Shown: positions 20,437 to 38,811, counted from the first letter of the stretch. The stretch is 64,000 bases of DNA from Acutalibacteraceae bacterium (GCA_045537815.1 JAZSQD010000127.1:28949-92948), one strand, 5' to 3'. Made by a program: numbers and translations. Notes: generated by a model from the sequence alone, not told the origin.

Positions 20437-20465
20437 AAAAATCCCGATTGTAGTCGGGATTTTTT
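20437..20465. terminator. Bidirectional hairpin terminator downstream of the HAD gene
   Basis: Sequence aaaa-atcccga-ttgtag-tcgggat-ttttt. Confidence 0.75.
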
Positions 20466-20527
20466 CATACACAATATATGGTTTTTAAGCTGTATCTATG
20501 GTAGGCGTAACCGATATTTTTATCTTA

Positions 20528-21196: not shown

Positions 21197-21215
21197 TTTA
21201 TCATTCCTTTTATAT

Positions 21216-21737
21216 TCATTCACAGTAAAAGCAATCCGCTTCCCATTTCTGTGCTTTGTGTTCTATATATTCCCATATTTTCAGGTAATCCTTTTCGTCG
21301 CGAATAACGTGGTCGTGAAAAGACCGTTGCCAAACAGGAATATTCCCCATTTTTTCTCTGATCTGTTTTGACGAATTCATTTTAATATAACCCATGACCT
21401 TTGATATCACGGACCGTTTCTGTAGGGGCGATTCACGAATCGCCCGCAATGCCTCTGAATCCTCAATAACAACTATCATATGAAAATGATTTGGCATTAT
21501 TATATATTTCTCGATTTTTACACCCAGTCTTTCCGGCAGGTTTTTTATTACACGGTCGAGAAATTCACCTGCACCCGTCATCACTGTTTCGGGCGATTGG
21601 TGAATCGCCCCTACGGATTTAACGTGACACAACAGCTTTCTCTTGTTATGTGTGCATACTGTTATAAATTATGCGCCGGGGGAGCTGTAATCGTAATTTT
21701 TCAGTCTGTTGGGCTTGCGCTCGGGTAAATCAGTCAC
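21216..21737 (-). pseudogene. RayT-like REP-associated tyrosine (HUH/Y1) transposase, interrupted by an in-frame TAA
   Basis: Hand translation from GTG 21737 gives MTDLPERKPNRLKNYDYSSPGA*FITVCTHNKRKLLCHVKSVGAIHQSP...IIMPNHFHMIVVIE...WQRSFHDHVIRDEKDYLKIWEYI. TAA at 21671-21669 sits where the family has the Tyr of the GAYF motif. The track reports only the downstream 138-aa part (21216-21632). Confidence 0.7.
21422..21614. repeat. Inverted pair of REP-like hairpins (GTAG plus palindrome) inside the RayT-like coding sequence
   Basis: GTAGGGGCGATTCACGAATCGCCC lies on the plus strand at 21422-21445. GTAGGGGCGATTCACCAATCGCCC lies on the minus strand at 21614-21591. They encode RAIRESPLQ and VGAIHQSP respectively and bracket the HUH segment. 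Confidence 0.8.
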
Positions 21738-21930
21738 TTCTACACCTTCTCGATTTCGGCCTTGCGATATATTATACATCAGCCGGCCTTTATTTTCAAT
21801 AAAACCCTATACATATTATATATGGTATTTACAGGTATATCACAGACAGCCGTGAATCGCCCTCCGGTTTCTGCCGCATCACTCCGATTTGCGCGGGCAA
21901 TGCCTTGCTTCTTCCTCCCGCATCGGTACA

Positions 21931-22019
21931 TGACTACTTACTACTTGCTACTGACTACTCGGACGGCCAATGGCCGCCCCTACTCCCTATTCCCTAATCC
22001 CTAATCCCTGATCCCTGAT
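21931..22019 (-). repeat. Composite repeat: (TGACTAC-like)x4, a REP hairpin, then (CCCTNNT)x6
   Basis: Heptamers tgactac ttactac ttgctac tgactac at 21931-21958. REP at 21960-21983 (reverse complement GTAGGGGCGGCCATTGGCCGTCCG). Heptamers ccctact ccctatt ccctaat ccctaat ccctgat ccctgat at 21978-22019. This is the inverted partner of 24574-24663. Confidence 0.9.
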
Positions 22020-22022
22020 AAG

Positions 22023-22050
22023 AAAAAGGACGGCATCAGCCGTCCTTTTT
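22023..22050. terminator. glgP terminator (bidirectional hairpin)
   Basis: Sequence aaaaa-ggacggc-atca-gccgtcc-ttttt, directly abutting the glgP stop at 22052. Confidence 0.85.
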
Positions 22051-22051
22051 C

Positions 22052-24457
22052 TTATCTGATTGTTCCTGTATGCCAGATATCTCTTGCGTAATCGTTGATT
22101 GCACGGTCAGCTGCGAAGCGGCCTGCGCCTGCAATATTCATAAGAGACATTCTGTTCCAGCGGTCTCTGTCCTTCCATACGGTGTCGATATACTTCTGCT
22201 TCTTTCTGTAATCGGCGAAGTCTGCAAGCACCATATAAGGATCGTGATGAATAATTGTGTTTCCGATTTCGGGGAACTGCTTGCCGTTTATACCCTTCTG
22301 AATGAAGTCGATAACCTTGCGAAGCTCAGCGTTGTTGTTATAGTAATTCATGGGCTGATAGCCTCTGTTCTTAAGGTCAACTGCTTCGGGAGTAGTCATA
22401 CCGAAAAGGAACATATTGTCATCACCCACAGCCTCGTGGATTTCTACGTTTGCACCGTCAAGAGTACCGAGAGTGAGTGCGCCGTTTATCATAAACTTCA
22501 TATTACCTGTACCGCTTGCTTCGGTACCTGCAAGAGAAATCTGCTCACTGATGTCTGCGGCGGGCATAAGGGTTTCAGCCATTGATACGTTGTAGTCCTC
22601 GAGATAAACAACCTTGAGTCTGCCTCTCATATCGGGATCGTTGTTGATAAGGTTGCTGAGAGCACAGATCATTTCGATAATCTTCTTTGCAACGAAGTAG
22701 CCTGAAGCAGCCTTTGCGCCGAAGATATATGTGTGAGGTACATAGTCGCCGTCGGGATTTTCCTTGATTTCGAGATATCTTGCGATAATCTGAAGTGCGT
22801 TGAGGTGCTGACGCTTATACTCGTGAAGTCTCTTTACCTGAACGTCAAAAATTGAGTTGGGGTCAAGCTCGATGCCTGTCTTAGCCTTAACGAGCTTGAT
22901 AAGCTTCTTTTTGTTGCTGAGCTTGATTGCTTCAAGCTTGTCAAGTACCTTCTTATCGTCTGCAAACTTCTGTAATTTAAGAAGCTCATCTGCCTTATAA
23001 ACAAAGCCGTCACCGATAAGCTCTGTGATAAGAGCGGTAAGCTCGGGGTTTGACTGACAGAGCCAGCGTCTGTGAGCGATACCGTTTGTAACATTCTTAA
23101 ACTTGTCGGGTGTGAGCTGATAGTAATCGTTGAATACTGTATCCTTAAGAATCTGACTGTGAAGAGCAGATACGCCGTTAACGCTGTGGCAGGCAGCAAC
23201 ACAGAGGTTTGCCATTCTGATAACACCGTTTGAGGTAACTGCCATATTCTCAACCTTACCTGCATCGTGAGTCATTTCCCAGACGTGTGAACGGTAGCGG
23301 TTGTCGATTTCCTTAACAATCTGATGAATTCTGGGAAGAAGGCTCTTGAAGAGGTCCTCGGGCCAGCATTCAAGTGCTTCCTTCATAACGGTGTGGTTGG
23401 TGTAAGCGCAAGCCTTTGATACAATGTTCCATGCATCGTCCCAGCCGTAGCCGCATTCGTCAAGAAGGATTCTCATAAGCTCAGGAATTGCAAGTGTGGG
23501 ATGAGTATCGTTGATGTGTACTGCATTCTTCTCTGCAAAGTTTTCCATTGTGCCGAAGTGGCGAAGATGTCTTGCAACGATATCCTGCACTGAAGCGGAA
23601 ACAAGGAAGTACTGCTGCTTGAGACGAAGGCTCTTACCCTCGTAGTGTCCGTCGGAGGGGTAGAGAATCTTGCTGATAACCTCAGCCATAGCCTGCTGCT
23701 CCATAGCCTTCATATACTGACCCTGGTCAAAGAGTCTCATATCAAGGGCAGGTGCAACGCTCTTCCAGAGACGGAGGATTGAAATACCCTTGCCGTCCTT
23801 ACCGCTGACATACATATCATAGGGAACAGCAACGATTGTCTGTGCATTTCTGTGCTCAACGCCGTGGTAGTGGTTATCCCAGGTGTCAACGATTTCACCG
23901 CCGAACTTAACCTCAACGGTATCCTTTTCTCTTGCCTTGAGCCATACCTCGCCGCCGGGAAGCCAGAAGTCGGGAAGCTCTGTCTGCCAACCGTCTATAA
24001 GCTTCTGCTTGAAGATACCGCATTCGTAAAGAATACTGTAGCCCATACCGTAGTAGCCCTGAGTTGCAAGACCGTCAAGATAGCAGGCTGCAAGTCTTCC
24101 GAGACCGCCCTTGCCAAGACCTGCATCAGGCTCGCACTCATAAAGCTTTTCAAGGCTGATGCCCATATCCTTGAGAGCGGCAGTAAAGGTCTTTGTAAGA
24201 TTAAGATTATAAAGATTATTCTTGAGAGAACGGCCCATAAGGAATTCCATTGAAAGATAATAAATCTTCTTCTGAGTCTGATTGCCCTTTTCTTTTCTGA
24301 ATTCACGAAGACCGTCGTTCATAAGCTCTCTGACAATGAGAGAAACAGCCTTGTAGTACTGCTCGTCGGTAGCCTCGTTGGAATCAACACCGAAATAGTG
24401 TGAAAGCTTACCCTCGATAAGCTCCTTCGCTTGTTTCTTTGTAAGGGAATAATTCAT
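22052..24457 (-). CDS. glgP: Glycogen/alpha-glucan phosphorylase
   Basis: 801 aa with the LSMEFLMGR motif, the PLP-lysine motif EASGTGNMKFMINGALTLGTLDGANVEI, and an SD GGAGG. Confidence 0.95.
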   Translation of the reverse strand: MNYSLTKKQAKELIEGKLSHYFGVDSNEATDEQYYKAVSLIVRELMNDGLREFRKEKGNQTQKKIYYLSMEFLMGRSLKNNLYNLNLTKTFTAALKDMGISLEKLYECEPDAGLGKGGLGRLAACYLDGLATQGYYGMGYSILYECGIFKQKLIDGWQTELPDFWLPGGEVWLKAREKDTVEVKFGGEIVDTWDNHYHGVEHRNAQTIVAVPYDMYVSGKDGKGISILRLWKSVAPALDMRLFDQGQYMKAMEQQAMAEVISKILYPSDGHYEGKSLRLKQQYFLVSASVQDIVARHLRHFGTMENFAEKNAVHINDTHPTLAIPELMRILLDECGYGWDDAWNIVSKACAYTNHTVMKEALECWPEDLFKSLLPRIHQIVKEIDNRYRSHVWEMTHDAGKVENMAVTSNGVIRMANLCVAACHSVNGVSALHSQILKDTVFNDYYQLTPDKFKNVTNGIAHRRWLCQSNPELTALITELIGDGFVYKADELLKLQKFADDKKVLDKLEAIKLSNKKKLIKLVKAKTGIELDPNSIFDVQVKRLHEYKRQHLNALQIIARYLEIKENPDGDYVPHTYIFGAKAASGYFVAKKIIEMICALSNLINNDPDMRGRLKVVYLEDYNVSMAETLMPAADISEQISLAGTEASGTGNMKFMINGALTLGTLDGANVEIHEAVGDDNMFLFGMTTPEAVDLKNRGYQPMNYYNNNAELRKVIDFIQKGINGKQFPEIGNTIIHHDPYMVLADFADYRKKQKYIDTVWKDRDRWNRMSLMNIAGAGRFAADRAINDYARDIWHTGTIR

Positions 24458-24573
24458 AAAAAACCTCCAAAATTGTCTATGAAAAAGTGCTTGTTTTTCA
24501 ATTTATATGGTTATTTTATACTAAAATTGAAGAAAAATCAACAGTAAGAGAGAAAAAAGTTAAGACTTTATGA

Positions 24574-24950
24574 ATTAGGGACCAGGGATTAGAGATTAGT
24601 TGTAAGGGTCAAGGGAGTAGGGGCGGCCATTGGCCGTCCGAGTAGTCAGTAGTCAGTAGTCAGGGAAACGCCCGTTGGGCGTTTAATGGTGTGAGCCGAT
24701 TTATGCACTTAAAATAAAACCTCTCCCGTAGGGGAGGGCCTGTGTGCCCTCCCGGACAACTTGACGGGTAGGTGTATTTAACGGTTAACTCGGACGGTCG
24801 CCGTGGGCGTCGACCGCTACAATCTACCACTTAGATGCTGCACAAAACTTACCTCTGCGGAAAGAAACATAAATCGGTCAACGTAGTTACCCCGCGACCG
24901 CACCTATTCCCTAGTCCCTAATCCCTAGTCCCTAGTCCCAAGCCCCTGAC
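24574..24950. mobile_element. 377-bp non-coding composite element bounded by inverted G-rich/C-rich heptamer arrays (MITE/BIME-like)
   Basis: Left end: attaggg-type heptamers (24574-24623), REP GTAGGGGCGGCCATTGGCCGTCCG (24617-24640) and (AGTAGTC)x3 (24641-24663). The interior carries hairpin aacgccc-gtt-gggcgtt (24667-83), REP GTAGGGGAGGGCctgtgtGCCCTCCC (24728-53) and an inverted REP (24791-24820). Right end: ccctagt ccctaat ccctagt ccctagt (24909-24950). No ORF is present. Confidence 0.75.
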
Positions 24951-24952
24951 TA

Positions 24953-24983
24953 ACAAAAAAATTGCACCCGAAGGTGCAATTTT
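24953..24983. terminator. glgA terminator
   Basis: Sequence aaaaaaa-attgcacc-cgaa-ggtgcaat-ttttt, abutting the glgA stop at 24984. Confidence 0.85.
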
Positions 24984-26411
24984 TTATTCAGCAATAACCT
25001 GCTTATACATCTTGATATATTCACTTGCGCTCTTGCCCCAGCTGTAATCGCATTCGATTGCACGGACAACAAGAGTATCCCAGTATTCTCTGTTCCAATA
25101 AGCGTCAAGACCGCGTCTTATTGCACCGAGCATATCGTGGGCGTTGTAGGTCTTGAAGGTGAAGCCGTTACCCTCGCCGTCGCCGCTGTCTGTGATTGAG
25201 TCACGAAGACCGCCTGTCTCACGGACGATGGGTACAGTGCCGTAACGGAGAGCTACCATCTGCGAAAGTCCGCAGGGCTCACTCTTGGAGGGCATGAGGA
25301 AGAGGTCTGCACCTGCATAAATCTTTCTTGCAAGAGAGGGAACAAAGCCAATCTTCACGCCCATCTTGTCGGGATACTTAGCAGCCATTTCCTTAAAGAA
25401 ATTCTCATACTGCCAGTCACCTGAGCCGACGATAGCAAACTGCACATCTGTTGTGTAAAGAAGCTCGTCAAGAATACCCTTGATAAGGTCGAGTCCCTTG
25501 TGGGAAACAAGTCTTGAAACAAGGCCGATAACGGGTACGTCTGCTCTTTCGGGAAGACCGAGCTCCTTTTGAAGCTCTGCCTTACAAGCCGCCTTGCCTT
25601 TCTTTACATCCTTTACGGTGTAATTCTTTGCAATAGCCTTATCTGTTTCCGGGTCATAGTTGATAACATCGATACCGTTGAGAATACCCTGCAGCTTCCA
25701 CTGACGCTCACGCAGAATAGTATCAAGACCGTGGCTATACCAGGGGTCGAGAATCTCGTTTGCATAAGAAGGAGAAACTGTTGTGACCTTGTTTGCACAT
25801 TCGATTGCGCCCTTCATAAAGTTAACGTCGCCGTCGTATTCAACAAGACCTGCCGCTTCGGGAGTAAGACCGATAACATCGTTTACAAGCTCCATACCGT
25901 AGGTGCCCTGATACTGAATGTTGTGAATGGTGAATACGGTCTTTATGCCGTGGTACCAGGGGTCCTTACTGTAAAAGGCTGAGTAGAACACGGGTGTAAG
26001 TGCGCTCTGCCAGTCATTACAGTGAATAATGTCGGGCTTGAAATCGATAACGGGAAGAATCTCAAGCACGGCACGGGCAAAGAAGGTGAATCTTTCCGCA
26101 TCGTCATAGTGGCCGTAAATGGTATCTCTCTTGAAATAGTACTGATTATCGATAAAGTAGTAGATGACGCCTTCGTGCTTTGCCTGGAAGATACCGCAGT
26201 ACTGTCTTCTCCATGCAACAGGAACCGAAATGTTTGTGATAAATGTCATCTTATCCTTAAGCTCCTGCTTGATTGTGTCATACATCGGCATAACCACTCT
26301 GCAGCCGATGAGTCTTTTTCTTAATGCCTGGGGGAGTGAGCCTGCAACATCACCCAGACCGCCGCTTGCCATAAAGGGCAGGGCTTCGCTGGTTACGTAT
26401 AATACTTTCAT
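24984..26411 (-). CDS. glgA: Glycogen synthase (ADP-glucose type)
   Basis: 475 aa, starting MKVLYVTSEALPFMASGGLGDVAGSLPQAL, with GT5/GT1 C-terminal motifs. Confidence 0.95.
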   Translation of the reverse strand: MKVLYVTSEALPFMASGGLGDVAGSLPQALRKRLIGCRVVMPMYDTIKQELKDKMTFITNISVPVAWRRQYCGIFQAKHEGVIYYFIDNQYYFKRDTIYGHYDDAERFTFFARAVLEILPVIDFKPDIIHCNDWQSALTPVFYSAFYSKDPWYHGIKTVFTIHNIQYQGTYGMELVNDVIGLTPEAAGLVEYDGDVNFMKGAIECANKVTTVSPSYANEILDPWYSHGLDTILRERQWKLQGILNGIDVINYDPETDKAIAKNYTVKDVKKGKAACKAELQKELGLPERADVPVIGLVSRLVSHKGLDLIKGILDELLYTTDVQFAIVGSGDWQYENFFKEMAAKYPDKMGVKIGFVPSLARKIYAGADLFLMPSKSEPCGLSQMVALRYGTVPIVRETGGLRDSITDSGDGEGNGFTFKTYNAHDMLGAIRRGLDAYWNREYWDTLVVRAIECDYSWGKSASEYIKMYKQVIAE

Positions 26412-26434
26412 TTTATTATTTTCCTTTCAGTGAG

Positions 26435-26899
26435 GAGGAAGAAGTAGTCAGTAGCCAGTAGTCAGTAGTCAGGATTCTAGTTTAACTATAAGTGTGTTGA
26501 GCATTCTCGCAACTTCTTTGCATAAATCAAAAGCTCTATCCGCTTGTTCCTGCGTTATAAAACCCTGCCGTATACAAATTATCAATTGTGTTTCAATCTC
26601 AGCTCTTGAGCTTCTTGCCACAGACAAAAACTGACTGTACTCTTTTTTTGATTTTCTCTCATAGCCTTCTGCAATATTTGACGGGATAGAAACTGCTGCT
26701 CTTCTCATCTGATCGGAAAGAGCGAACATTTCTTCTTTTGGCAAAAGTTTTACAATCTTATAAGTTTCGTCCACTAAATCCATAGACCTCTGCCAGACTA
26801 TCAAGTCTTTGCAACCGTTTATATATCTTCACCTCGTCTCAAAATGCACCGTAGGTGCATCTCTGACTACTGACTACTGACTACTGACTACTCTTCCTC
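26435..26899. mobile_element. Inverted-repeat-flanked cassette carrying a four-helix-bundle gene, inserted in the glgD-glgA spacer
   Basis: IR-L is gaggaagaagtagtcagtagccagtagtcagtagtcag (26435-26471). The reverse complement of IR-R (26863-26899) is agaggaagagtagtcagtagtcagtagtcagtagtcag. By hand alignment the two match apart from one indel and about two substitutions. The cassette lies 15 nt after the glgD stop and about 20 nt before the glgA SD. Confidence 0.8.
26469..26804 (-). CDS. Four-helix-bundle protein (23S rRNA intervening-sequence protein / Avd-like family)
   Basis: Carries the family motifs (DL)IVWQRSMDLV...LPKEE...L.DQMRRAAVSIPSNIAEGYER.SKKEY.QFL.VARSS.AEIETQL. The only available start is a TTG inside the conserved DLIVWQ motif, with no clear SD. 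The N-terminus is therefore shorter than the family norm and the gene may be decaying. Confidence 0.75.
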   Translation of the reverse strand: MIVWQRSMDLVDETYKIVKLLPKEEMFALSDQMRRAAVSIPSNIAEGYERKSKKEYSQFLSVARSSRAEIETQLIICIRQGFITQEQADRAFDLCKEVARMLNTLIVKLES

Positions 26900-26916
26900 T
26901 GCGTTATCTGTAAAGA

Positions 26917-28026
26917 TTAAACCGTAATATTCTTTCCGACGTAAATCGGATAGGTTTCTGCGCCGCTGATTTCACGGGCGGGCTTGATTACAACATTCTT
27001 ATCAAGGATAGCACAGTTTACCTTTGCGTTGGCACTGATATAGCAGTCCTGCATAAGAATTGAGTTTTTGACAACTGCACCCTCGGCAACATATACGCCT
27101 CTCGAGAGGATTGAGTTTTCAACAGTACCCTTGATTATGCAGCCGTCGGAAACGAGTGAGCCTGATGCCTTTGAGCATATGCCGTAAATTGCGGGCATAT
27201 CGTCTCTTTCCTTTGTATAAACCGGCTTGTTTGCAGCAAAGAGATCTCTGTATTCACCTGAAAGAAGCTGCATGCTGATATCATAGTAGCTCTGGAGTGA
27301 ATCAATGGTCTTTGCATAGGAGTCAATTTTGTGGCCTCTTATCTTGAGTGTATTGACCTTAGCGGCAATTATATCTCTTTCAAAGCTCTTATATCCAAAA
27401 ATTACTAACTCACGGATAAGCTGAAGAAGGAGTGCTCTTGACATAACAATTATGTTCAGAGAATAGTCGCAGGCACTGTCTGAAGCCTCGCCTACGCTTA
27501 CTGCCGTGATTCTGTCACCGTCAAGTGTAAAGCTCATAGTGTTGTGAAGCTTGGGAGCAACACCTCTCTTATAAGCAACGGTGATATCTGCACCTGAAGC
27601 GATGTGACCGTCGATAATTTCGGTGTAATCGAGATTGCAGACAACGTTACAGTCAGCCAGAAGCACATAATCCTTACCTGACTTTGATATGTATTCGTTA
27701 ATGCCCTTGAGAGCAGCAAGTCTTCCTATGTATCCGTCAGCATATGTTGTGTTGAAGGGAGGAAGGAAGGTAAGACCGTCTCTTTTTCTTGAAAGGTCCC
27801 AGGGCTTGCCTGAGCCGAGATGGTCCATAAGTGACTGGAAGTTTGCCTTTGTGCTTACACCTACCTTGCCTATACCGCTGTTAACCATATTGGAAAGCAC
27901 AAAGTCGATAAGTCTGTATCTGCCTGCAAAGGGTACAGAGCCCATGGTGCGTACACTTGTGAGCTCACTTAAATATTCATCGTATACATTTGAATATACA
28001 ATACCTAAAACATTTGATGCGTACAT
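26917..28026 (-). CDS. glgD: Glucose-1-phosphate adenylyltransferase regulatory subunit GlgD
   Basis: 369 aa, a GlgC paralogue lacking the GGxGxRL motif and followed by left-handed beta-helix repeats. Its start shares a single nucleotide with the glgC stop codon. Confidence 0.9.
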   Translation of the reverse strand: MYASNVLGIVYSNVYDEYLSELTSVRTMGSVPFAGRYRLIDFVLSNMVNSGIGKVGVSTKANFQSLMDHLGSGKPWDLSRKRDGLTFLPPFNTTYADGYIGRLAALKGINEYISKSGKDYVLLADCNVVCNLDYTEIIDGHIASGADITVAYKRGVAPKLHNTMSFTLDGDRITAVSVGEASDSACDYSLNIIVMSRALLLQLIRELVIFGYKSFERDIIAAKVNTLKIRGHKIDSYAKTIDSLQSYYDISMQLLSGEYRDLFAANKPVYTKERDDMPAIYGICSKASGSLVSDGCIIKGTVENSILSRGVYVAEGAVVKNSILMQDCYISANAKVNCAILDKNVVIKPAREISGAETYPIYVGKNITV

Positions 28027-29240
28027 TATTTAACCCCCTCTACGTCTGTGTCGATCATTTCCTTTGCCTTGACTGCGGCACCCTTGCCGATTGTTACCTT
28101 TTCACCGATAACGGTTACGCCCCAGTTATCAAGATTTTCAATTGCCTCGGGGCTTTCACCGATGTGAGCACCCTCTTCGATAACTGCGTTTTCGGCTACG
28201 ATTGCATATTCAACAACCGCGCCCTTCTTTACTGTTGTGCCGGGCATAATGATTGAATATTTAACTGTTGCACCTTCTTCAACATTTACGTTTGAGAAGA
28301 GAATAGAGTAATCAACATTACCTGCTATGTAACAGCCCTCGCCGATCATTGAATTTTCAACCTTGGCGGTTTTGTCTGTGAAGTGGGGAGGTGCAACGGG
28401 ATTTCTTGAATAGATTCTCCAGCTGTCATCGGAAAGGTCAAGGTCAACCTTGGGATTGAGAAGATCAAGGTTTGCTTCCCAGAGACTTTCGATTGTTCCG
28501 ACGTCCTTCCAGTAGCCGTCAAACTTATATGCAAACATTCTCTCGCCTGCCTGATGCATTGCGGGGATAACGTTGTGACCGAAGTCGTTGTGTGATTCGG
28601 GGTCTGCCTCATCGTCGATAAGGTACTGGCGAAGCTTGCTCCAGGTGAAGATGTAAACGCCCATTGAAGCTTTGTTGCTCTTGGGATTCTTGGGCTTTTC
28701 CTCGAAGGCTGTGATTGAGCCGTCATCGTCTACAAACATAAGACCGAAGCGGGAAGCCTCCTCCCAGGGTACCTCAAGCATAGCGATTGTGCAGGCGGCA
28801 TCCTTTTCCTTGTGATAACGGAGCATCTTGTTGTAATCCATCTTATAGATATGGTCACCTGAAAGAACAGCTACGTATTCGGGATTGTATCTGTCGATGA
28901 AGTTGATATTCTGATAAATTGCGTTTGCTGTGCCCTTATACCATTCTGTGCCCTTAATCTGCTGATAGGGTGAAAGCACGTGAACACCGCCGTAGGAACG
29001 GTCAAGATCCCAGGGCTGACCGTTGCCGATGTAATCGTTAAGCTCGAGGGGCTGATACTGAGTAAGTATACCCACAGTTTCGATACCTGAGTTGATGCAG
29101 TTTGAAAGCGGGAAATCGATTATACGGTATTTACCGCCGTAAGGTACGGCAGGCTTTGCGATATTCTTTGTGAGTATGCCGAGTCTGCTGCCCTGTCCGC
29201 CTGCGAGAAGCATTGCGAGACATTCTGTTTTTTTGACCAT
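28026..29240 (-). CDS. glgC: Glucose-1-phosphate adenylyltransferase
   Basis: 404 aa with [43 protein letters not shown]. Confidence 0.95.
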
Positions 29241-29284
29241 TTGAATTTCCTCCTGTCGTTTTTTTATATTGGTTAATTATAAGT

Positions 29285-29480
29285 TAAGTGAGTTTTTCAG
29301 GGGATTAGGTAACCCTCTCCGTCAGATGCCTTGCATCTGCCACCTCTCCCTGAGGGAGAGGCAAGAGTAAAGCAACTTGGTAAGAAGTATCTATCTTGGC
29401 TCTCCCTTTGGGAGAGCTGTCACGAAGTGACTGAGAGGGTATCCCTTGCTACTTGCTACTTACTACTTGCTACTTGCTAC
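29285..29480. repeat. Composite intergenic element: degenerate gggattagg, a multi-hairpin CTCTCCC/GGGAGAG module, then (TTGCTAC)x5
   Basis: Closing stem accctctc (29312-19) / gagagggt (29433-40) encloses four hairpins at 29323-39, 29343-61, 29399-417 and 29419-31. The heptamer array spans 29446-29480. Confidence 0.8.
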
Positions 29481-31368
29481 TTTTCTTAGGCTTATACTTA
29501 AGCAGAGTGAAGCTGAAGCCGGGCAAATCAAGAGTGATGCTGTTATCGAAGCCGTGCATAGGCACCTTCTTTGAGGTCGCTCTCTTACTGCCCTTGCCCT
29601 CGCCGCCGAATTCCTCGGCATCAGAGGAAAGGATAACCTCGTATACACCCTCTCTTTCCACACCGAAGGAGTATTTCTCCCTCATAACCGGCGTGAGATT
29701 ACATACTGCCACAAGCTCGTTGCCTTTTTTGTCTTTTCTTGCGAATGCGATAACACTGTTCTGATTGTCGTCACTCACAAGCCACTTGAAGCCCTCCCAG
29801 CTGTAATCAATTTCCCAGAAGGCGGGATTTTTAAGATAGATGTGATTGAGCTTCTTTACATAAGCCTTGAGCTGACGGTGCTTTTCATAGCCGAGAAGCA
29901 GCCAGTCAAGCTCACTGTCATACTTCCATTCGATAAACTGACCGAATTCCTGACCCATAAAGGTAAGCTTCTTACCCGGGTGAGCCATAAGGTAGCCGAG
30001 GAATGAACGTATGCCGCTGAATTTTTCCTCATATTCTCCCGGCATCTTGCCGATAAGTGAGCATTTTCCGTGAACAACCTCATCGTGTGAAATGGGAAGG
30101 ATAAAGTTTTCGGAAAAAGCATAGAAGAAGGAGAAGGTGAGAAGATTATGGTTATACTTTCTTGAAAGACCGTCCATCGAGAAATATCTCAGGGCGTCAT
30201 TCATCCAGCCCATATTCCATTTGAAGTTGAAGCCGAGGCCGCCGATATCCGTGGGCTTTGTCACAAGAGGCCAGGCAGTGCTTTCCTCGGCAATCATCAG
30301 GGGATTTTTAAACTCGCGGAAGATACCTGAGTTAAGCTTCCTGAGAAATTCAACAGCCTCAAGATTTTCGTTGCCGCCGTACTTGTTGGCAATCCATTCG
30401 CCGTCCTTTCTGCCGTAGTCAAGATAAAGCATTGAAGCAACTGCGTCAACACGAAGTCCGTCAATGTGATATTTATCCATCCAGAAGGCGGCCGATGAGG
30501 TAAGGAAGGAAATAACCTCGTTTCTGCCGAAGTCGAATATCTTTGTGCCCCAATCCTTATGCTCGCCCTTTTTCGGGTCCTTGTATTCGTAGCAGGCTTC
30601 ACCGTCAAAGTCAGCAAGTCCGTGTTCATCTCTCGGGAAGTGGGCAGGCACCCAGTCGAGAATAACGGAAATACCGTTCTGATGACACTTATCAACAAAG
30701 TACATAAGGTCGTCGGGAGTACCGTAGCGGGAGGTTGCGGCAAAGTAGCCGATTACCTGATATCCCCATGAGCCGTCGAAGGGATATTCGCTAAGGGGCA
30801 TAAGCTCAATGTGAGTGTAGCCCATATCCTTGACGTAGGGTACAAGACTTTCGGCAAGATCTCTGTAAGAATAAGGGTTGCCGTCCTCGTGAATTTTCCA
30901 CGAGCCTGCGTGCACCTCATAGATATTCATCGGAGACTCGTAAACGTTTATATTCGCCTTTTCTTTTTGCCATTTGCTGTCCTTCCACTTGTATGATCCC
31001 AGCTCATAAATCTTTGAGGCGGTCTCAGGCCTTGTCTGTGAGTGGAAGGCATAGGGGTCGCACTTGGCTGTTTTTTTGCCCGAGGGTGCCGTAACGAGGA
31101 ATTTGTAGCAGTCATACTGCTTTACTCCTTCAAGATAGCATTCCCACATTCCCGCATCGTTGATTTTTGTCATGGTGCCCTTTGATTCATCCCAGCCGTT
31201 AAAGTCACCTATAACGCTGACCGCCGCGGCGTGGGGAGCCCATACACGGAAAGAGAAAAGCTTATCGGTAACCCTGTGAGCGCCCATGTATTCGTAGGCC
31301 TTCATATTGTTGCCCTGATGAAACAGATAAAGGGCAACATCGTCACCTTTGGGTTTCTTTTCTGTCAT
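29470..31368 (-). CDS. glgB: 1,4-alpha-glucan branching enzyme
   Basis: 632 aa with a GH13 catalytic core ([28 protein letters not shown]). Its last codons, AGT AGC AAG TAG, lie inside the AGTAGCA heptamer array. Confidence 0.95.
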
Positions 31369-31606
31369 TGTTACACCTCTCTTTAAAAAAAGATAGTTCT
31401 ACACATAGTCCATAATATCACTAATGTATCGGGATTTCAATAGTTTTTTGTTATTCTGTTACAAGTTGATAAATCTTCCCCTAAATCTTTTGTATAATTT
31501 TACCTAATATTTTCCACATGGCAGGGGCTGATTCTTGCAAATGACGATGTTGTGTAATATCTAATGGTTTTTTTCTCTCTACTTTTTAATAAAAGGCAAA
31601 ACTAAA

Positions 31607-31639
31607 GAGCCGGTTATCGGTGTTACCCGATCCGGCTCC
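31607..31639 (-). terminator. Terminator of the TIR-domain gene
   Basis: On the minus strand: ggagccgg-atcgggtaacaccgat-aaccggctc, followed by tttagttttgcctttt. Confidence 0.7.
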
Positions 31640-31667
31640 TTAAGCTTTTTAAGCAGATATTCAACTC

Positions 31668-34151
31668 TTAATCAAAAAACATGCGTCCGTCTTCAGAATG
31701 GTTAAGCGCTTTAAAGAATTCATCCTCTGCAATAAGGCTGAGGAATGCTTGATGATCTCTTTCGATTCTTCCGCCCTGGAAAATACCGTAAATGTAGGGA
31801 TATCCTGTTACAGGCTCGTCGCTTGAATACATATATTCAAAGTTCTTTGCAAAGAAGACTCTTGCTCTCTCGTCGCCCTGCTCATTGATGAAATAAATTG
31901 AAACGGTGTCAAAGAAGCAGTTTTCAAAATCAATTGTCTCATAAAGCTTCTTTGAAGCAGCAACCATGTTCTCAGGAAGCTTTTCGTCAACGGCGAAGTC
32001 TAGACCTATTCTGAGATTTCCGCCGATTTCTTCGATAAATCTTACAGGGTAGGCTTCTTCTATTATCTTGCGGGTTTCTTCCTTAAGGAAAACATCTCCG
32101 AATTCCTTGTCTTCCTCGCTGAAGGTGTAGCCCTCAAGAGTGAGATAAATATCAAGACTGTTTTCATATATCGCCAGAGCAAGAGCAGGAAGCCAGCTGC
32201 TGTTTTCCTCAGCACCCTCAAGACAGGTGAAAACAAAGCTGTCACCCTCAACCGCCTTTGCTCTGAGAATGGGCATTGTCGAGGTTTTATCGACTATATA
32301 GATTTCATCCTTGCCCTCTGCCTGTGCCGCCTTGCAGAGATTTGCAAAAAGAGTCTTGTCACCTTCGGTCATGGCAGTGACCTTAAGTGCGGTAACACCG
32401 TCCGCCTCAGTAAGCTCAACATATTTATCCTTGCTGTAGGATATGGGAACAGAAGCCTGGGTATAGCCTGCGATAAAGGAAATTCCCGTTGAGCAAAGCA
32501 CTGAAAGAACACCGTTGTTGAGCTTGTCGGGTGACATCTTTACAACAATGAGATAGGGATCATTGATTCCGTAGCCGAGGGCGTAGGGCTCACCGAAGGT
32601 ATCAAGTCGGTTTTTAAGGCTTGTTAAGGTGTCAAGCCATTTGCCTTCGGATACGTTACCGTATTCTGAGCCACGGTAGCTCACGGAAATGGTTTCACCC
32701 TTGATTTCACTGTAGTTTTTCTGATTTGCACCGAAAAGTGCGCCCTCTTCAGACTTTTCCCAGTGGGCTGCAATATCTATATTTACTATAAGACTTGCGG
32801 CTGGATGCTCTGTGGTCATGTTGTTGATAAGCACCTCGTTGAGAGTGGGATGTCTGTCATCGTTGAGAATATAATATACGCCCTGCTTGTCTGCCTTGTA
32901 GGTGTCAAAATAGTAATAGCTGTCCGTCATTTCCACCTTATCCTGAGCAAACACAAGCTCATCGCCGAAAATCTCTATTTCTTCTTTGTTTTTCTTAAGG
33001 TAATCTGACTTGAGCACTACCTCTATGTATTCATAATTTTCCTTGTCCTGTACATTGTCTTCGTTAATCTCAGGCTCCCCGGGTATTTTACCCTTGAGAA
33101 GCTTAACCGACTCGATGTTTTCGGGGGCTACCTCTATCTGAGCTACCTCGGGAGCTTCGCTTGACCAACGGTTAGTTGTAAGATAAAGCCTTGCGGCTCT
33201 TGAAACATAGCACTTGATCATATCGGTTGCGGTAAGCTCACCGAAAAGCTCAAAGGGAACGATAAGGTCAACCGTATCACCCTCAACCTTTATTGAATAC
33301 CTCTGCCCGTCAGCAATAATATCCATTCTGTCCTTTACGGTTTCAGAGGCGGTCTTGAATTCTGCGGCGGTCATATTTTCGGGTGCGCTGAGAACGATAT
33401 GATATTTATACTCCATATCTGAGTACCAGAGATAATTATCGAGAGCAACCGCACCTGCAGAAACACCGATAACACCGACGAAGGCAAGGGCAACGATGCC
33501 GCCTGCCGTGGTTTTATTAATTCTAAACCCCTTAAGAGCTTTTTTTCTGAAAACAAACAGAGGGATAAAGCCGATTACAGCCGCAATAACAGCCCCGATA
33601 AGCTTAACCGCCATACCGAAGGACGAAAATACAACAAGATAAGCGGCGGCGGCAGCGCAAAGCCAGAGCCAGATAACAGAAAGAGTAAGCTTAAGACCGT
33701 AAAGCGGTTTTTTCGGCTTCTTATCATCTTCTTCGTCATCCTCATCTTCTCTATCAGGCTTAGGCACAGCCTTTTCAATATCGCTTACAAGCTTTGCCAC
33801 TCTGGAAGCATCGTACTGGAACATGCAGTGAATTGTGGCAAGATAATACTTGATGGTATCGCTGTATTCAGAATCGTCAAGCCTTATGGGGATAACGGGC
33901 ACCTGATTTTCAATAGCAAGCTGGATTTCACGGCTGACCTGACCCGAATGGTTTGAGTTGCCGCTTGAAAGGAAAAGAAAAACCGAGGAGTTCATAATAG
34001 CCTTTGAAATTTCACCCGCCCATTCCTTACCGTAGGGAATATCTCTGGGTGCAATCCAGCATTTCATATCGTTACTTTCAAGAGCGTCACAAATTATGGT
34101 TGCCGTTTTCGAATCCTTGCTCGAATGACTGATAAAAATTCTTTTCTCCAT
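31668..34151 (-). CDS. Membrane-anchored TIR-domain protein: N-terminal TIR, acidic linker, three predicted TM helices and a roughly 590-aa C-terminal ectodomain
   Basis: The N-terminus IFISHSSKDSKTATIICDALESNDMKCWIAPRDIPYGKEWAGEISKAIMNSSVFLFLSSGNSNHSGQVSREIQLAIE fits the bacterial TIR_2 pattern (FISxS...W...G..W...I.....S..S..S.W...E), with the candidate catalytic Glu at residue 75. Hydrophobic segments are LKLTLSVIWLWLCAAAAAYLVVF, MAVKLIGAVIAAVIGFIPLFVF and GGIVALAFVGVIGVSAGAVAL. Confidence 0.8.
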   Translation of the reverse strand: MEKRIFISHSSKDSKTATIICDALESNDMKCWIAPRDIPYGKEWAGEISKAIMNSSVFLFLSSGNSNHSGQVSREIQLAIENQVPVIPIRLDDSEYSDTIKYYLATIHCMFQYDASRVAKLVSDIEKAVPKPDREDEDDEEDDKKPKKPLYGLKLTLSVIWLWLCAAAAAYLVVFSSFGMAVKLIGAVIAAVIGFIPLFVFRKKALKGFRINKTTAGGIVALAFVGVIGVSAGAVALDNYLWYSDMEYKYHIVLSAPENMTAAEFKTASETVKDRMDIIADGQRYSIKVEGDTVDLIVPFELFGELTATDMIKCYVSRAARLYLTTNRWSSEAPEVAQIEVAPENIESVKLLKGKIPGEPEINEDNVQDKENYEYIEVVLKSDYLKKNKEEIEIFGDELVFAQDKVEMTDSYYYFDTYKADKQGVYYILNDDRHPTLNEVLINNMTTEHPAASLIVNIDIAAHWEKSEEGALFGANQKNYSEIKGETISVSYRGSEYGNVSEGKWLDTLTSLKNRLDTFGEPYALGYGINDPYLIVVKMSPDKLNNGVLSVLCSTGISFIAGYTQASVPISYSKDKYVELTEADGVTALKVTAMTEGDKTLFANLCKAAQAEGKDEIYIVDKTSTMPILRAKAVEGDSFVFTCLEGAEENSSWLPALALAIYENSLDIYLTLEGYTFSEEDKEFGDVFLKEETRKIIEEAYPVRFIEEIGGNLRIGLDFAVDEKLPENMVAASKKLYETIDFENCFFDTVSIYFINEQGDERARVFFAKNFEYMYSSDEPVTGYPYIYGIFQGGRIERDHQAFLSLIAEDEFFKALNHSEDGRMFFD

Positions 34152-34185
34152 TTTTACTCTCCGTAAAAGTTATTTGATAAACCCG

Positions 34186-34214
34186 ATTATATCACAGTCC
34201 TTCAGGTTTGACAA
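34186..34214 (-). promoter_or_regulatory. Putative sigma-A promoter of the TIR gene
   Basis: On the minus strand: TTGTCA (34214-09), a 17-nt spacer, then TGtgaTATAAT (extended -10; TATAAT at 34191-86). Confidence 0.55.
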
Positions 34215-34225
34215 GTGCTTGAGGA

Positions 34226-34464
34226 GGGATTAGGGATTAGGGATTAGTAGCAAAGGTAAGGGTTTTGATATTAGTAGTCAGTAGCCAGTAGCCAGTAGTC
34301 AGGGGAACGCCCGTCGGGCGTTTAATGGCGTAAGCCAATTCATGCCTCCGAGCAAAAATGATACGGTAGGGACACGGCTCGCCGTGTCCGCAAACCTGAC
34401 CGATAAATATATTTAATTTAACACGGTAGGGGCGTCCGTTGTGTCGTCCGAGTAGTCAGTAGTA
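34226..34464 (+). repeat. Composite repeat: (GGGATTA)x3, (AGTAGTC/AGTAGCC)x4, a conserved backbone, two REP hairpins and a second AGTAGTC stub
   Basis: Coordinates are gggattagggattagggattag at 34226-50 and the AGTAGTC array at 34273-34300. The backbone 34294-34346 matches 24657-24709 with 7 mismatches in 53 nt (hand alignment). REPs are GTAGGGACACGGCtcGCCGTGTCC (34366-90) and GTAGGGGCGTCCGttgtgtCGTCCG (34426-50). The stub agtagtcagtagta is at 34451-64. Confidence 0.85.
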
Positions 34465-34470
34465 AGGAAC

Positions 34471-34540
34471 TAATGGCGTGAGCCAATTCATGCCATAGGC
34501 AATTCATGACAAGGTCAATTCATGGCGTAGCCAATTCATT
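34471..34540 (+). repeat. Mini-hairpin array A: four 11-12-nt hairpins separated by ATTCA
   Basis: Hairpins are tggc-gtga-gcca (34474-85), tgcc-ata-ggca (34491-501), tgac-aag-gtca (34507-17) and tggc-gta-gcca (34523-33). Each is followed by attca. Confidence 0.9.
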
Positions 34541-34576
34541 CCATACAATATTATTGAGGGACCGGCAGCCAACAAC

Positions 34577-34659
34577 TGACCGCAGGTCAATAACACTATG
34601 CGAAGCGTAATATCACTGCATAGCAATAAAACTGCCGAGTGTCCTTGCGGACACTCGGC
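34577..34659 (-). repeat. Mini-hairpin array C (short copy) ending in the MFS gene terminator hairpin
   Basis: Order on the plus strand: tgacc-gca-ggtca, ATAACACT, atgc-gaa-gcgt, AATATCAC, tgc-ata-gca, ATAAAACT, gccgagtgtcc-ttgc-ggacactcggc (34634-59). This is near-identical to 38691-38788. Confidence 0.9.
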
Positions 34660-34676
34660 TAGCAGGGAGCTGTTTA

Positions 34677-36605
34677 TCAGTCTGCGTTTTCTTCTTCAGC
34701 CTTGTCGATGATTTCCTGAGGTACTGCCTCACCGTGCTTAACAAACATAATGAGAATAATTGCAAGCAGGAACATTACCGGACTGTAATAGAACAGCGAC
34801 ATATAGGTTCCGGCAAACATTCTTATAAAGCCGTAAACGATGGGAGAAGCAATCTGTGCTGAGAAGGTAGCGGTGTAGTAGTAGCCTGTGAAGGTGCCGA
34901 CCTTTTCAATACCGCCGATTTCAAGAACGAGGGGAAGGGTGTTAACGGTGATGAACATATTTGCTGCACCGCCGAGAATAAGAACGGGATAGATAAGAAC
35001 TCTGAGAATTGCGGTAACACTGTTGACCGTGTCAACGATTGCGCCGAGAGCAACCTCAAAGGAGTCTGTTTCTGTGCCGAGGATATTATTTGCAACTGCA
35101 ACAAGGTCAGTATAAACGCCCTCACCCTTGGTTTCGATAAGATAAGCGTCATACTTTTCATATGCGGCAACATTGATTACTGCTGCATCAGCATTTACGT
35201 CTGATTCGGTTACTGCGGCTGCAGATGCTGCAGCGGTGCCTTCGCCGTTCTTATATGCGAGATAGCCTTCGATTGAAAGAACCTCGTCGTCTGAAAGCTT
35301 TGTGCCGTTGAGCTGAGCCTCATTACTTCTGTCTGCATTGTATTCGTTGATATTTTCATCAATAACGATATAAGCATTGTTAACGGTAACATAATCCTTG
35401 ATTGCAAGGCCCTTGCTGCCGAGCATGCCTACGAATACGCCAAAGAATACAACAAAAGCTGCAAGGAAGACCGAAAGGCCGGCAATGATGGTCTTCTTTC
35501 TTCCGATCTTCTTGCCCATTTTACCTGCAGGGATAGCGGCAACACCTGAGCATACTGCAAAGATGAGCATGATGAAGGTTGCCTCTGAGGTAATCATGTG
35601 AAGGATTTCCTGAGCGAAGAGTGAGAAGAAGGTTGTAATTGCATTTGATGCGCAGAAAAGGAAGAAGAGTGTGCCGAGCATAAATGCAAGACTTTTTCTT
35701 TCGCCCTTTGAGAGCTTAATAGCCTTAAGCTCAGCTTTTTTCTGCTTTGCAGCTTCCTTCTGAGCTTTTTTGAGTGCCTTCTGGTCTGCGTACTGATTTG
35801 CATCACCCTTGATTCGAATGCTTGTGTCTTCTTCCTTAACAAAGAAGAGAAGCACGAGCATACCGATGATCATAACAAGTGAACCTACGATGAATACATA
35901 GGGGAATGATACTGTTTCGTCAGCCTTGATTTCTGCCTTGCTGTAGCCTGCAAAAAGAGTACAAAGTGCAATACCTATTGTGCCTGCAACCATACCTACA
36001 GCTGAACCGATACCACCCATAAGGTTGATGATTGCATTACCTTCACTGCGAAGCTCCGGAGGAGTAAGGTCAGGCATAAGAGCAACAACAGGGGCTCTCC
36101 ACAGTGACATTGAGAAAACAAAGAGAATAACCACCAGCATTGTAAGAGGAAGCTGGAGTGCGCCGCTTGTGTTAAGCGCAACAATGGGAATAAGAGCAAA
36201 AAGAAGAGCCGAAATCGGAGCGCAGGCAACAATGAAAGGACGGCGCTTACCGAGCTTTGAATGGCAATTATCTGAAAGCTTACCGAAAGTGGGCTGGAAA
36301 ATAACACCGAAGATGTTATCGAAGGTCATAATGATACCGATGAAAAGAGGTACCAGTGAGAAGCCGCCTGATGCGGTAATTGTACTCTGACCCTGAGCCT
36401 CTGCAAACTCGCCTATCCAGGGAACAGCACTTGCAAGCTTGGCACTGAGGTTTGTAACCAGGTCACTTTCCGAAAGTATCTTGTTGAGAATTTTTGTAAT
36501 ATAGGGGTCATAAATTGCCCATGCGATTGATGTTGCCAGGAAACCAAAACCTGTAAGTATGGTCTTTGGCACATTCAGCTTCTGAACATTCTGTTGTTTT
36601 GCCAT
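34677..36605 (-). CDS. MFS-type transporter (glycoside/cation symporter-like) with a charged central loop and a roughly 145-aa soluble insert
   Basis: 642 aa with multiple hydrophobic helices. The central loop is KKAQKEAAKQKKAELKAIKLSKGERK. A non-hydrophobic insert, KDYVTVNNAYIVIDEN...DSFEVALGAIVDTV, lies between late TM helices at about 34973-35402. Confidence 0.7.
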   Translation of the reverse strand: MAKQQNVQKLNVPKTILTGFGFLATSIAWAIYDPYITKILNKILSESDLVTNLSAKLASAVPWIGEFAEAQGQSTITASGGFSLVPLFIGIIMTFDNIFGVIFQPTFGKLSDNCHSKLGKRRPFIVACAPISALLFALIPIVALNTSGALQLPLTMLVVILFVFSMSLWRAPVVALMPDLTPPELRSEGNAIINLMGGIGSAVGMVAGTIGIALCTLFAGYSKAEIKADETVSFPYVFIVGSLVMIIGMLVLLFFVKEEDTSIRIKGDANQYADQKALKKAQKEAAKQKKAELKAIKLSKGERKSLAFMLGTLFFLFCASNAITTFFSLFAQEILHMITSEATFIMLIFAVCSGVAAIPAGKMGKKIGRKKTIIAGLSVFLAAFVVFFGVFVGMLGSKGLAIKDYVTVNNAYIVIDENINEYNADRSNEAQLNGTKLSDDEVLSIEGYLAYKNGEGTAAASAAAVTESDVNADAAVINVAAYEKYDAYLIETKGEGVYTDLVAVANNILGTETDSFEVALGAIVDTVNSVTAILRVLIYPVLILGGAANMFITVNTLPLVLEIGGIEKVGTFTGYYYTATFSAQIASPIVYGFIRMFAGTYMSLFYYSPVMFLLAIILIMFVKHGEAVPQEIIDKAEEENAD

Positions 36606-38590: not shown

Positions 38591-38788
38591 AAGTGATATT
38601 CCGACTGTGTCGGAGTGGTATTATTGCCACAGGCAATAGTAATATTGAAACTTTCAGTTTCAGTTTTATTTTATTCGCAAAAAACTTGCGAAGCAAATAA
38701 CACTATGCGAAGCATAATATCACTGCAAAGCAATAAAACTCGCCGCAAGGCGAATAAAACTGCCGAGTGTCCCGTAAGGACACTCGGC
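38591..38788. repeat. Mini-hairpin array C: eight small hairpins with AGTNNTATT-type spacers, mirrored between convergent genes
   Basis: The left arm reads on the plus strand: ccgac-tgt-gtcgg, gcc-aca-ggc and gaa-act-ttc, each followed by AGTGGTATTATT / AATAGTAATATT / AGTTTCAGTTTTATTTTATT. The centre is cgcaa-aaaac-ttgcg. The right arm reads on the minus strand: atgc-gaa-gcat, tgc-aaa-gca, cgcc-gcaa-ggcg and the 11-bp hairpin at 38762-88, each followed on the minus strand by AGTGTTATT / GTGATATT / AGTTTTAT / AGTTTTATT. Confidence 0.9.
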
Positions 38789-38811
38789 TAAGCGGTTGCG
38801 TATTATTTTGA

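Follow-up and report, generated by a model that had tools for sequence, protein, structure and literature searches.

Tandem arrays of heptanucleotide units have been on record from bacterial genomes since 1990, no function for them having gained acceptance, and the PF05635 proteins ('four helix bundle / 23S rRNA IVS', in which IVS denotes an intervening sequence) are abundant and uncharacterised. Here, we analyse a 64,000-nucleotide (nt) stretch of DNA from an Acutalibacteraceae bacterium (GCA_045537815.1, JAZSQD010000127.1:28949-92948; this whole stretch is referred to as the window), in which arrays of AGTAGTC, ATTAGGG and related heptamers lie among the glycogen (glg) genes, some of them in inverted pairs that bracket a PF05635 gene or another cargo. 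To our knowledge, heptanucleotide repeats of the short tandemly repeated repetitive (STRR) or long simple sequence repeat (LSSR) class have not been described before in Clostridia/Oscillospiraceae. We think it moderately likely that these arrays form the arms, tolerant of shifts in register, of stem-loop modules resembling an IVS and of the relatives of such modules that have no open reading frame (ORF), set in a mosaic that resembles repetitive extragenic palindromes (REP) and bacterial interspersed mosaic elements (BIME).

Heptanucleotide repeats are the most abundant class of long simple sequence repeats in many prokaryotes, according to the survey of Mrazek 2007 as summarised in PMC4679880 and PMC4692102. 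The TAACTGA arrays of Beggiatoaceae, Cyanobacteria and Bacteroidetes present stops in all forward frames, which has been discussed as a constraint on their placement (PMC4679880). GGGAATC and GGGGA(C/T)T arrays of Xanthomonas and Nostoc are intergenic, often occur as inverted pairs, preferentially contain four units and form G-quadruplexes (G4) in vitro; Xanthomonas has 70-75 inverted GGGAATC pairs, and the published study found no regulatory role for them (PMC4692102). The 23S rRNA IVS of Coxiella encodes S23p; its terminal stem measures 28 bp, its ORF is preceded by tandem GACAGAT heptamers in a number that varies between strains, and it is cut by RNase III at the first heptamer repeat (PMC4990558). 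The first-pass annotation of the window, made from the sequence alone, was aware of no described bacterial repeat family with this design, which is incorrect, heptamer families having been described (PMC4679880, PMC4692102, PMC4990558). The arrays are not a new design and belong to a class that is known but unexplained. No paper among those searched and read turns the association of heptamer arrays with PF05635 genes into a general one.

Heptamer arrays and their inverted pairs

Tandem Repeats Finder and a separate self-match scan for periods 4-11 were applied to the window. The former lists nine period-7 arrays (21933-59, 21978-22016, 24641-63, 24903-47, 26443-72, 26863-92, 29445-82, 34225-47 and 34273-302), and the latter finds eight arrays of period 7 and none of periods 4-6 and 8-11. 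Dinucleotide-preserving shuffles contain 0.0 arrays per shuffle, both for the window (8 observed, n=100) and for 2067 nt of local intergenic DNA (7 observed, n=300). The arrays and their sequences are thus borne out as first read, their period is not expected from composition, and the confinement claimed for them holds, as every array of the window falls within 21.9-34.5 kb. Two of the arrays reported in the first-pass annotation are weak: that at 24574-623 is degenerate and not among the Tandem Repeats Finder arrays, yet is part of an 81-nt inverted repeat, and that at 34451-64 has just two units. All arrays lie between genes or on the final codons of an ORF, so that the description of all of them as intergenic is accurate for most and fails for 29445-82, at the glgB end, and 26443-72, at the end of the four-helix-bundle ORF. 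Their reported position at the edges of other repeats is also found, GC hairpins headed by GTAG adjoining the arrays. We conclude that the heptamer arrays are real and are local members of a widespread bacterial class of intergenic heptanucleotide tandem repeats.

An inverted-repeat search of the window reveals three array pairs that are inverted around a cargo. The pair 26443-72/26863-92 (repeat I2; 30 nt, 97% complementary) brackets the four-helix-bundle gene, the pair 24574-623/24903-50 brackets a hairpin-rich non-coding core of about 240 nt, and the pair 21937-22017/24583-24663, made of composite modules (repeat I1; 81 nt, 85% complementary), brackets glgP. In predicted RNA folds of the first two modules, the arms make up the closing stem. 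For the four-helix-bundle cassette this stem is about 38 bp long and the folding energy is -160 kcal/mol as compared with -115 kcal/mol in shuffles (z = -8.1), and for the module with the non-coding core the corresponding values are -152 and -125 kcal/mol (z = -4.5). The arrays and the elements that adjoin them are as follows.

21931-21959, minus strand: AGTAGTC-type array of about four units (AGTAGTC/AGTAGCA/AGTAGTA), outer part of an 81-nt composite module downstream of glgP (repeats D2 and I1)
21961-21983, minus strand: GTAG-headed REP-like hairpin GTAGGGGCGGCCATTGGCCGTCC whose GC stem has 8 bp, between two arrays
21978-22019, minus strand: (ATYAGGG)6 array, its minus strand carrying six G3 tracts, directly after the glgP terminator hairpin (22017-22056)
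24574-24663, plus strand: inverted copy of the composite module, with the degenerate ATTAGGG array (24574-623), a GTAG hairpin (24617-39) and (AGTAGTC)3.3 (24641-63)
24664-24902, no strand assigned: hairpin-rich non-coding core with REP-like hairpins at 24728 (plus) and 24820 (minus), enclosed by G-rich and C-rich array arms
24903-24950, plus strand: (CCCTAGT)6 array, inverted partner of 24574-623, abutting the glgA terminator (repeats D3 and I18-22)
26443-26472, plus strand: (AGTAGYC)4.3, 3' arm of the four-helix-bundle cassette, holding the TGA of the ORF (26469-71), just upstream of the glgA ribosome-binding site
26845-26859, minus strand: small hairpin just inside the 5' arm, TGCACC/GGTGCA in the window
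26863-26892, plus strand: (GACTACT)4.3, for which the sense strand has AGTAGTC; it forms the 5' arm of the cassette, 25 nt past the glgD stop
29445-29482, minus strand: (AGTAGCA)5.4, without an inverted partner, replacing the natural glgB end
34225-34302, plus strand: upstream of the gene for the TIR-domain protein, (ATTAGGG)3.3 followed in direct order by (AGTAGYC)4.3, at a synteny breakpoint relative to close relatives (repeats D1 and D4)
34366-34464, plus strand: GTAG REP-like hairpin (34366-90), then another, degenerate hairpin and an AGTAGTC stub of two units (34451-64)

Arrays around PF05635 genes in metagenomes

A reverse sample was assembled from 80 metagenomic loci chosen only by similarity to the four-helix-bundle protein of the window (45-59% identity). 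These loci contain 90 period-7 arrays and at most six arrays of any other period, and arrays reach a density of 2.65 per kb at distances of up to 200 nt from the PF05635 gene as against 0.17 per kb elsewhere, a 15-fold difference. When the count is restricted to the 63 loci whose flanks both extend for 150 nt or more, taking arrays within 200 nt, a period-7 array flanks the gene in 36, on both sides in 18 of them and on one side in the other 18; for other ORFs of the sampled loci, an array is present at 18 of 125 and on both sides at only one. In the full set of 80, arrays occupy both sides of the gene at 21 loci, and their arms are reverse-complementary (at most one mismatch) in 18, the units differing from locus to locus, as compared with about two complementary pairs and a maximum of seven in 1000 shuffles of the partners. 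Of 57 loci, 21 have flanks whose complementarity lies above the 99th percentile of mismatched controls, and in about 45 it lies above the 95th. These comparisons tie heptanucleotide arrays to PF05635 genes in a sample picked by protein similarity alone, and the arms co-vary. That the arms are complementary although units differ between loci is, judged from the sequences, the signature of a selected stem, which matches the experimentally studied IVS.

Two further expectations were not sustained. Location of the homologous cassettes within rRNA genes was rejected, as no 23S or 16S signature words occur in the 80 loci. A dependence of cassette orientation on host transcription was dropped, since co-orientation with the neighbours (77% and 74%) is uninformative; we take such values to lie near what is general among bacteria.

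Among solved structures, the nearest to the protein encoded in the window is XCC0516 of X. campestris (PDB identifier 2GSC), and the solved homologues crystallised with five chains. The Xanthomonas protein is described as a homopentamer (PMC4990558), and a supplementary table places GGGAATC array #15 on the annotated start of XCC0516 (PMC4692102).

The same spacers in close relatives

Homologues of GlgA at 87-100% identity are abundant in metagenome-assembled genomes (MAGs) of Clostridia/Oscillospiraceae. Two relatives with 90% identical GlgA (L127 and L128) represent empty sites, with a glgB-glgC spacer of 31 nt and a glgD-glgA spacer of 34 nt, and no period-7 array was found in them across 21 kb. 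In L121-123 and L211 the glgD-glgA spacer likewise contains the four-helix-bundle cassette with AGTAGYC arms. The same spacer contains another insert in L124 and L125, of 180 nt and non-coding, with inverted (AAGGGCC)4/(GGCCCTT)4 arms whose unit is stop-free on both strands; in L209 it has hairpin elements instead, and in L210 it is almost empty. GlgB ends in KKK-TAA in L124, KKK-TAG in L122, where the TAG is supplied by the first array unit, KKKQSV-TAA in L125 and KKSSK-TAG in the window. Comparison of strains for copy number, as suggested in the first-pass annotation, reveals a difference: TAGGGAY units after an identical GlgA number 6.5 in L124 and 2.5 in L125, with another locus invariant in 10 contigs. 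The sequence of the small hairpin at 26845-26859 differs in relatives yet its pairing is kept, for example as ATTCCC/GGGAAT in L121.

In the relatives, glgA is directly followed by the promoter region of a gene encoding about 2500 amino acids, and some 4.5 kb (window 20440-24960), with the HAD gene, a pseudogene resembling REP-associated tyrosine transposases (RAYT) and glgP, are absent. The 4.5-kb segment is therefore an insertion. One of its boundaries is made of arrays, and the array-rich end abuts the glgA terminator. Thus, empty sites, other inserts and differing copy numbers at the same spacers identify the arrays as parts of inserted, fast-changing modules.

AGTAGTC arrays in other phyla

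The 21-mer (AGTAGTC)3 occurs at 120 loci or more, with less than one match expected by chance, and its hosts among the matches listed include Cyanobacteria, Acidobacteriota, Chloroflexota, Planctomycetota, Bacillota, Bacteroidota, Verrucomicrobiota and others. AGTAGTC arrays usually occur together with related units, one of them the STRR3-like CAACAGT, which is interleaved with them in Microcoleus and Tychonema. Neighbouring array pairs among the listed loci are inverted in 41 cases, direct in 10 and unrelated in 39; the inverted pairs mostly enclose cores of 50-85 nt that resemble GC hairpins or terminators, and a few enclose 300-420 nt. The association with PF05635 crosses phyla: inverted (AGTAGYC)7 arms, their orientation unchanged, flank a 50%-identical four-helix-bundle gene in the Desulfobacca MAG L081, where a RAYT-like ORF and the cassette fall within 2 kb. 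Local linkage of arrays to RAYT genes was rejected as a general feature, RAYT-like ORFs being present at three of 208 loci.

Two loci are worth recording separately. In an Anaerolineae MAG (L092, 2155-2820), long inverted AGTAGTC-type arrays surround an ordinary HIT-family gene (HLHLHLL motif), with GACAGAG and ATTGCGT arrays alongside; array pairs can therefore enclose host genes (compare glgP in the window). In a Pyrinomonadaceae MAG (L050, 2480-2790), inverted AGTAGTC arrays enclose four copies of the palindrome GTCCCGTAGGGAC, a REP-like mosaic in a different phylum.

Stop triplets in the array units

It had been proposed in the first-pass annotation that, as seven is not a multiple of three, the arrays close the reading frames wherever a stop triplet occurs once per unit. 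This is correct for perfect units. When the real arrays are translated, all six frames are closed in five of them; elsewhere one or two frames stay open on a single strand, namely two plus frames in 21931-59, one minus frame in 26443-72 and two minus frames in 34273-302, the last because AGTAGCC is without TGA on the other strand. The AGTAGCA array (29445-82) is open on the plus strand, in agreement with the reading that this unit has a stop on one strand only. Two window genes do end on array stops: the glgB ORF extends 13 nt into the array at 29445-82 and takes its TAG as stop, and the TGA of the four-helix-bundle ORF (26469-26471) lies inside the array at 26443-72. The same is seen for glgB of L122 and in four of the 21 metagenomic cassettes with arrays on both sides. 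The stop-codon reading is thus partly supported: arrays do close frames, but this does not best account for their existence.

Stop content was compared with that of letter-permuted units and exceeds it, which answers the control for stop content on the side of an excess. Among the 69 units that flank PF05635 genes, a stop is present in 52 on the G-rich strand (37.2 expected) and in 27 on the other strand (17.3 expected); of 258 non-seed arrays, both strands contain stops in 76 (46 expected) and 59 fall in the class with no stop (98 expected). By triplet, TAG (34 as against 15.8) and CAG (20 as against 6.3) are enriched in the PF05635-flanking units, TGA (15 as against 15.8) and TAA (6 as against 6.9) are not, and ATG is depleted on the G-rich strand only (1 as against 15.8). 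YAG is present in 50 of the 69 units and is followed by G or T in 44 of these 50, giving a YAGK core. The enrichment is one of YAG rather than of stops as such, and the stop triplets are best read as incidental, a side effect and not the purpose of the units, which weakens the claim of a stop-codon design. Frequent occurrence of arrays inside coding regions, which would have spoken against that claim, is not seen: 12% of 391 arrays from all loci lie inside long open frames, as compared with 73% of random segments, and of 61 stop-free arrays 18 lie inside such frames and 43 outside.

Proposed mechanism and alternative explanations

In the window, two arrays of one unit, placed in inverted orientation around a cargo, constitute a small module inserted between the glycogen genes. 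The cargoes are a promoter-less PF05635 four-helix-bundle gene, the 240-nt hairpin-rich non-coding core and glgP. We hypothesize that, after transcription, the arms would pair in vivo as a stem of 30-38 bp that tolerates shifts of register, and, by analogy with the architecture of the S23p-type IVS, the module could be excised from the host transcript or insulated within it, a possibility raised by the cleavage of the heptamer-bearing Coxiella IVS stem by RNase III, an enzyme that may likewise cleave here. Copy number would change through replication slippage. The units share the YAGK core and would owe their stop triplets to it. As a consequence, any reading frame that runs into an arm is closed within 21 nt, for which reason modules are able to lie immediately at the ends of genes. 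For annotators this means that ORF ends or starts beside arrays, as that of glgB here, may have been remodelled.

Several observations weigh against this proposal. At the threshold used, 27 of the 63 PF05635 loci are without an array, and the window arrays at 29445-82, 34225-302 and 34451-64 are without an inverted partner. By hidden Markov model (HMM), a four-helix-bundle gene is present in two of the 120 listed AGTAGTC-seeded loci, both genes being flanked by inverted arrays; the expectation of such a gene beside every AGTAGTC array was accordingly rejected, and the heptamer-array class is much broader than the four-helix-bundle cassette. The arms are invariant in one cassette population (P0165, the 10 contigs noted above). 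No target-site duplication was recognised between the filled and empty glgD-glgA and glgB-glgC spacers, the flanks of which are much diverged, and no transposition signature could be defined for the modules. Lastly, the excess of stop-bearing units over permuted units is as a translational reading predicts.

That translational reading takes the units to be selected for stops in all frames and the arrays to be translational insulators, which end ribosomes arriving from truncated or read-through ORFs in the manner of engineered interposons. The genes that end on array stops, the excess of stops on both strands, the small number of non-seed arrays with no stop and the near absence of ATG on the G-rich strand all agree with it. 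However, the non-stop triplet CAG is enriched above TAG, TGA and TAA are not enriched at all, and the depletion of ATG affects one strand only. Arms built of the stop-free AAGGGCC occupy the same glgD-glgA spacer with the same architecture in L124 and L125, neither strand of the best-studied families (GGGAATC and GGGGACT) contains a stop, frames stay open in several window arrays, and stop-free arrays are likewise kept out of ORFs, so that we regard selection for stops as unlikely. Equally, the arrays could be neutral by-products, heptamers being the unit most liable to polymerase slippage and surviving only where they are harmless, with functionless inverted pairs arising from local palindromic duplication. 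The general abundance of heptanucleotide repeats in prokaryotes, for which the footprint of the polymerase has been put forward as a cause (Mrazek 2007; summaries in PMC4679880 and PMC4692102), fits such an origin, as do the copy-number difference between the near-identical strains L124 and L125 and the high turnover at the same glg spacers. It does not readily account for the 15-fold concentration of arrays beside one gene family, the complementarity kept despite changes of unit, the YAGK core shared by 50 of 69 units or the recurrence of one 21-mer across phyla, and a wholly neutral origin seems improbable to us. A telomerase-like or integron attC-like origin of the units was weighed on paper only and dropped without any supporting feature.

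Recognition at the level of DNA would require a module-moving protein that binds or cuts YAGK every 7 nt, with a RAYT-type HUH enzyme or the pentameric four-helix-bundle protein as candidates. The YAGK core fits this, GTAG is contained in AGTAGTC, AGTAGCA and AGTAGGG, the arrays run in register into GTAG-headed hairpins, the RAYT-like gene lies 200 nt from the first array, and L081 combines a RAYT-like ORF with the cassette; in addition, the five-chain crystals and the homopentamer description (PMC4990558) may be set beside typical arrays of 4-5 units. Against this, the RAYT-like gene of the window is a pseudogene that scores under the family cutoff, RAYT-like ORFs are as rare at the surveyed loci as stated above, most units have TAG or CAG without GTAG, free-standing PF05635 proteins are not known to bind nucleic acids, and neither target-site duplications nor cleavage signatures were found; we consider such recognition very doubtful. 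A related and quite unlikely scenario is that an array, a PF05635 gene and an inverted array together form a self-contained selfish cassette, in which the protein or a RAYT-type enzyme reads YAGK every 7 nt and from which ORF-less derivatives gave rise to the scattered arrays. If true, the unexplained heptamer repeats and the uncharacterised four-helix-bundle family would share a common biology. Finally, G-rich arrays might regulate neighbouring genes through G-quadruplexes or i-motifs. On the minus strand, six G3 tracts with 4-nt loops are present in each of 21978-22019 and 24903-50. The array at 34225-50 has only three tracts, whereas four or more with short loops characterise arrays of the GGGNATC type. 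The G4 potential noted at first pass is consistent with in vitro data on the related GGGNATC arrays (PMC4692102). This potential is limited to the G-rich arrays and does not apply to the AGTAGTC, AGTAGCA and AAGGGCC arrays of the same architecture, and the published GGGNATC study found no regulatory role (PMC4692102); we consider this explanation extremely improbable. Arms of IVS-like stem-loop modules are therefore the reading that we retain for the arrays.

Gene context and other repeats of the window

All genes of the array block are on the minus strand.

20528-21223, minus strand: HAD hydrolase
21216-21745, minus strand: RAYT-like (IS200/Y1 HUH) gene with an in-frame TAA (Pfam Y1_Tnp; NCBIfam NF047646)
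22052-24457, minus strand: glgP
24984-26411, minus strand: glgA
26469-26804, minus strand: four-helix-bundle gene, 111 amino acids, PF05635 23S_rRNA_IVP / TIGR02436, Avd-like (Pfam 5.5e-39; TIGR02436 1.4e-38; PDB identifier 2GSC, XCC0516, 2e-22)
26917-28026, minus strand: glgD
28026-29240, minus strand: glgC
29470-31368, minus strand: glgB
31668-34151, minus strand: TIR-domain protein
34677-36605, minus strand: MFS transporter

The RAYT-like gene scores 71 bits against the REP-associated tyrosine transposase family NF047646 of NCBIfam, under its cutoff of 80, and its translation shows the in-frame TAA. It has a REP-like hairpin on one side and two more within the ORF, the latter being inverted GTAG hairpins at 21419-49 and 21587-617 (repeat I4; 31 nt, 90% complementary). 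Both are in frame, where they read GAIHQSPE and RAIRESPLQ, and the ORF looks as though REP sequences had been absorbed into the transposase gene. In total, seven GTAG-headed GC hairpins with stems of 8-9 bp are present in the window (21422, 21614, 21983, 24617, 24728, 24820 and 34366), all of them within 21.4-34.4 kb and adjoining arrays. A search of the whole window with Rfam at gathering thresholds gave one tRNA only, with no RNA family over the modules and no rRNA.

Some other features of the region were noted in passing. The TIR-domain protein has 827 amino acids with an N-terminal TIR_2 domain and weak matches to the TIR domains of anti-phage proteins, and its gene, which adjoins the glg operon, is conserved in relatives. 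A dispersed repeat of about 80 nt, at 34590-34662 and 38690-38792, consists of tandem 19-20-nt units (TGCGAAGCATAATAACACTA-like) followed by the hairpin GCCGAGTGTCC-loop-GGACACTCGGC, and one of its copies lies outside the array block of the first-pass annotation. At 34484-34545, the 16-nt unit CAATTCATGCCATAGG is repeated four times in tandem, and single copies at 24690-24707 and 34333-34349 adjoin AGTAGTC arrays. A small hairpin family, CTCTCC-loop-GGAGAG followed by GTCAC-AAA-GTGAC-AGAGAGGTATCC, occupies glg spacers of different relatives (L209, 5850-5990; L127, 11430-11520) and, in the window (29300-29445), adjoins the AGTAGCA array. The 12/24/48-nt periodic repeat ACAACAGCTCCT at 51305-51441, within the ORF 51098-52057, is probably a Thr/Pro-rich linker unrelated to the heptamers.

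Comparison with known systems

The window arrays resemble the cyanobacterial STRR and the LSSR of the heptamer-repeat class in their 7-nt unit, copy numbers from two to about ten, intergenic bias, mixture of related units and variable copy number, whereas the link to PF05635 cassettes and the co-variation of arms are not stated in the literature examined. With the TAACTGA arrays they share stops in all forward frames, overlap of ORF ends by a few codons, a patchy spread across phyla and location in rearranged intergenic regions; the TAACTGA arrays differ in their unit and in a position that is mostly immediately before a start codon, with a single orientation, and they seldom form inverted pairs (PMC4679880). 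The GGGAATC and GGGGA(C/T)T arrays are similar as G-rich heptamers within about 50 nt of ORF ends, with many convergent pairs and a modal number of four units, but their units are stop-free and the window also has units that are not G-rich.

The mosaic as a whole recalls REP/BIME with RAYT (PMC3116915), with which it shares GC-rich GTAG hairpins, alternating orientation, intergenic clusters with linker motifs and a RAYT-like neighbour; unlike these, the linkers of the window are tandem heptamers and the RAYT-like gene is degraded and below the family cutoff. Viewed against miniature inverted-repeat transposable elements (MITE), which combine terminal inverted repeats with a target-site duplication, the modules present inverted arms; no duplication was recognised between filled and empty spacers, the flanks of which are much diverged. 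The S23p-type IVS of Coxiella burnetii and Leptospira (PMC4990558) sits in helix 45 or 25 of the 23S rRNA, while the window cassette is found in the glgD-glgA mRNA spacer; both arms of the latter consist almost wholly of heptamers, and processing by RNase III is shown for Coxiella only. The two nevertheless share a PF05635/S23p ORF enclosed by stem-forming terminal inverted repeats (about 28 bp in the IVS), heptamers of the 5' arm directly upstream of the ORF, a variable number of units and the lack of an own promoter.

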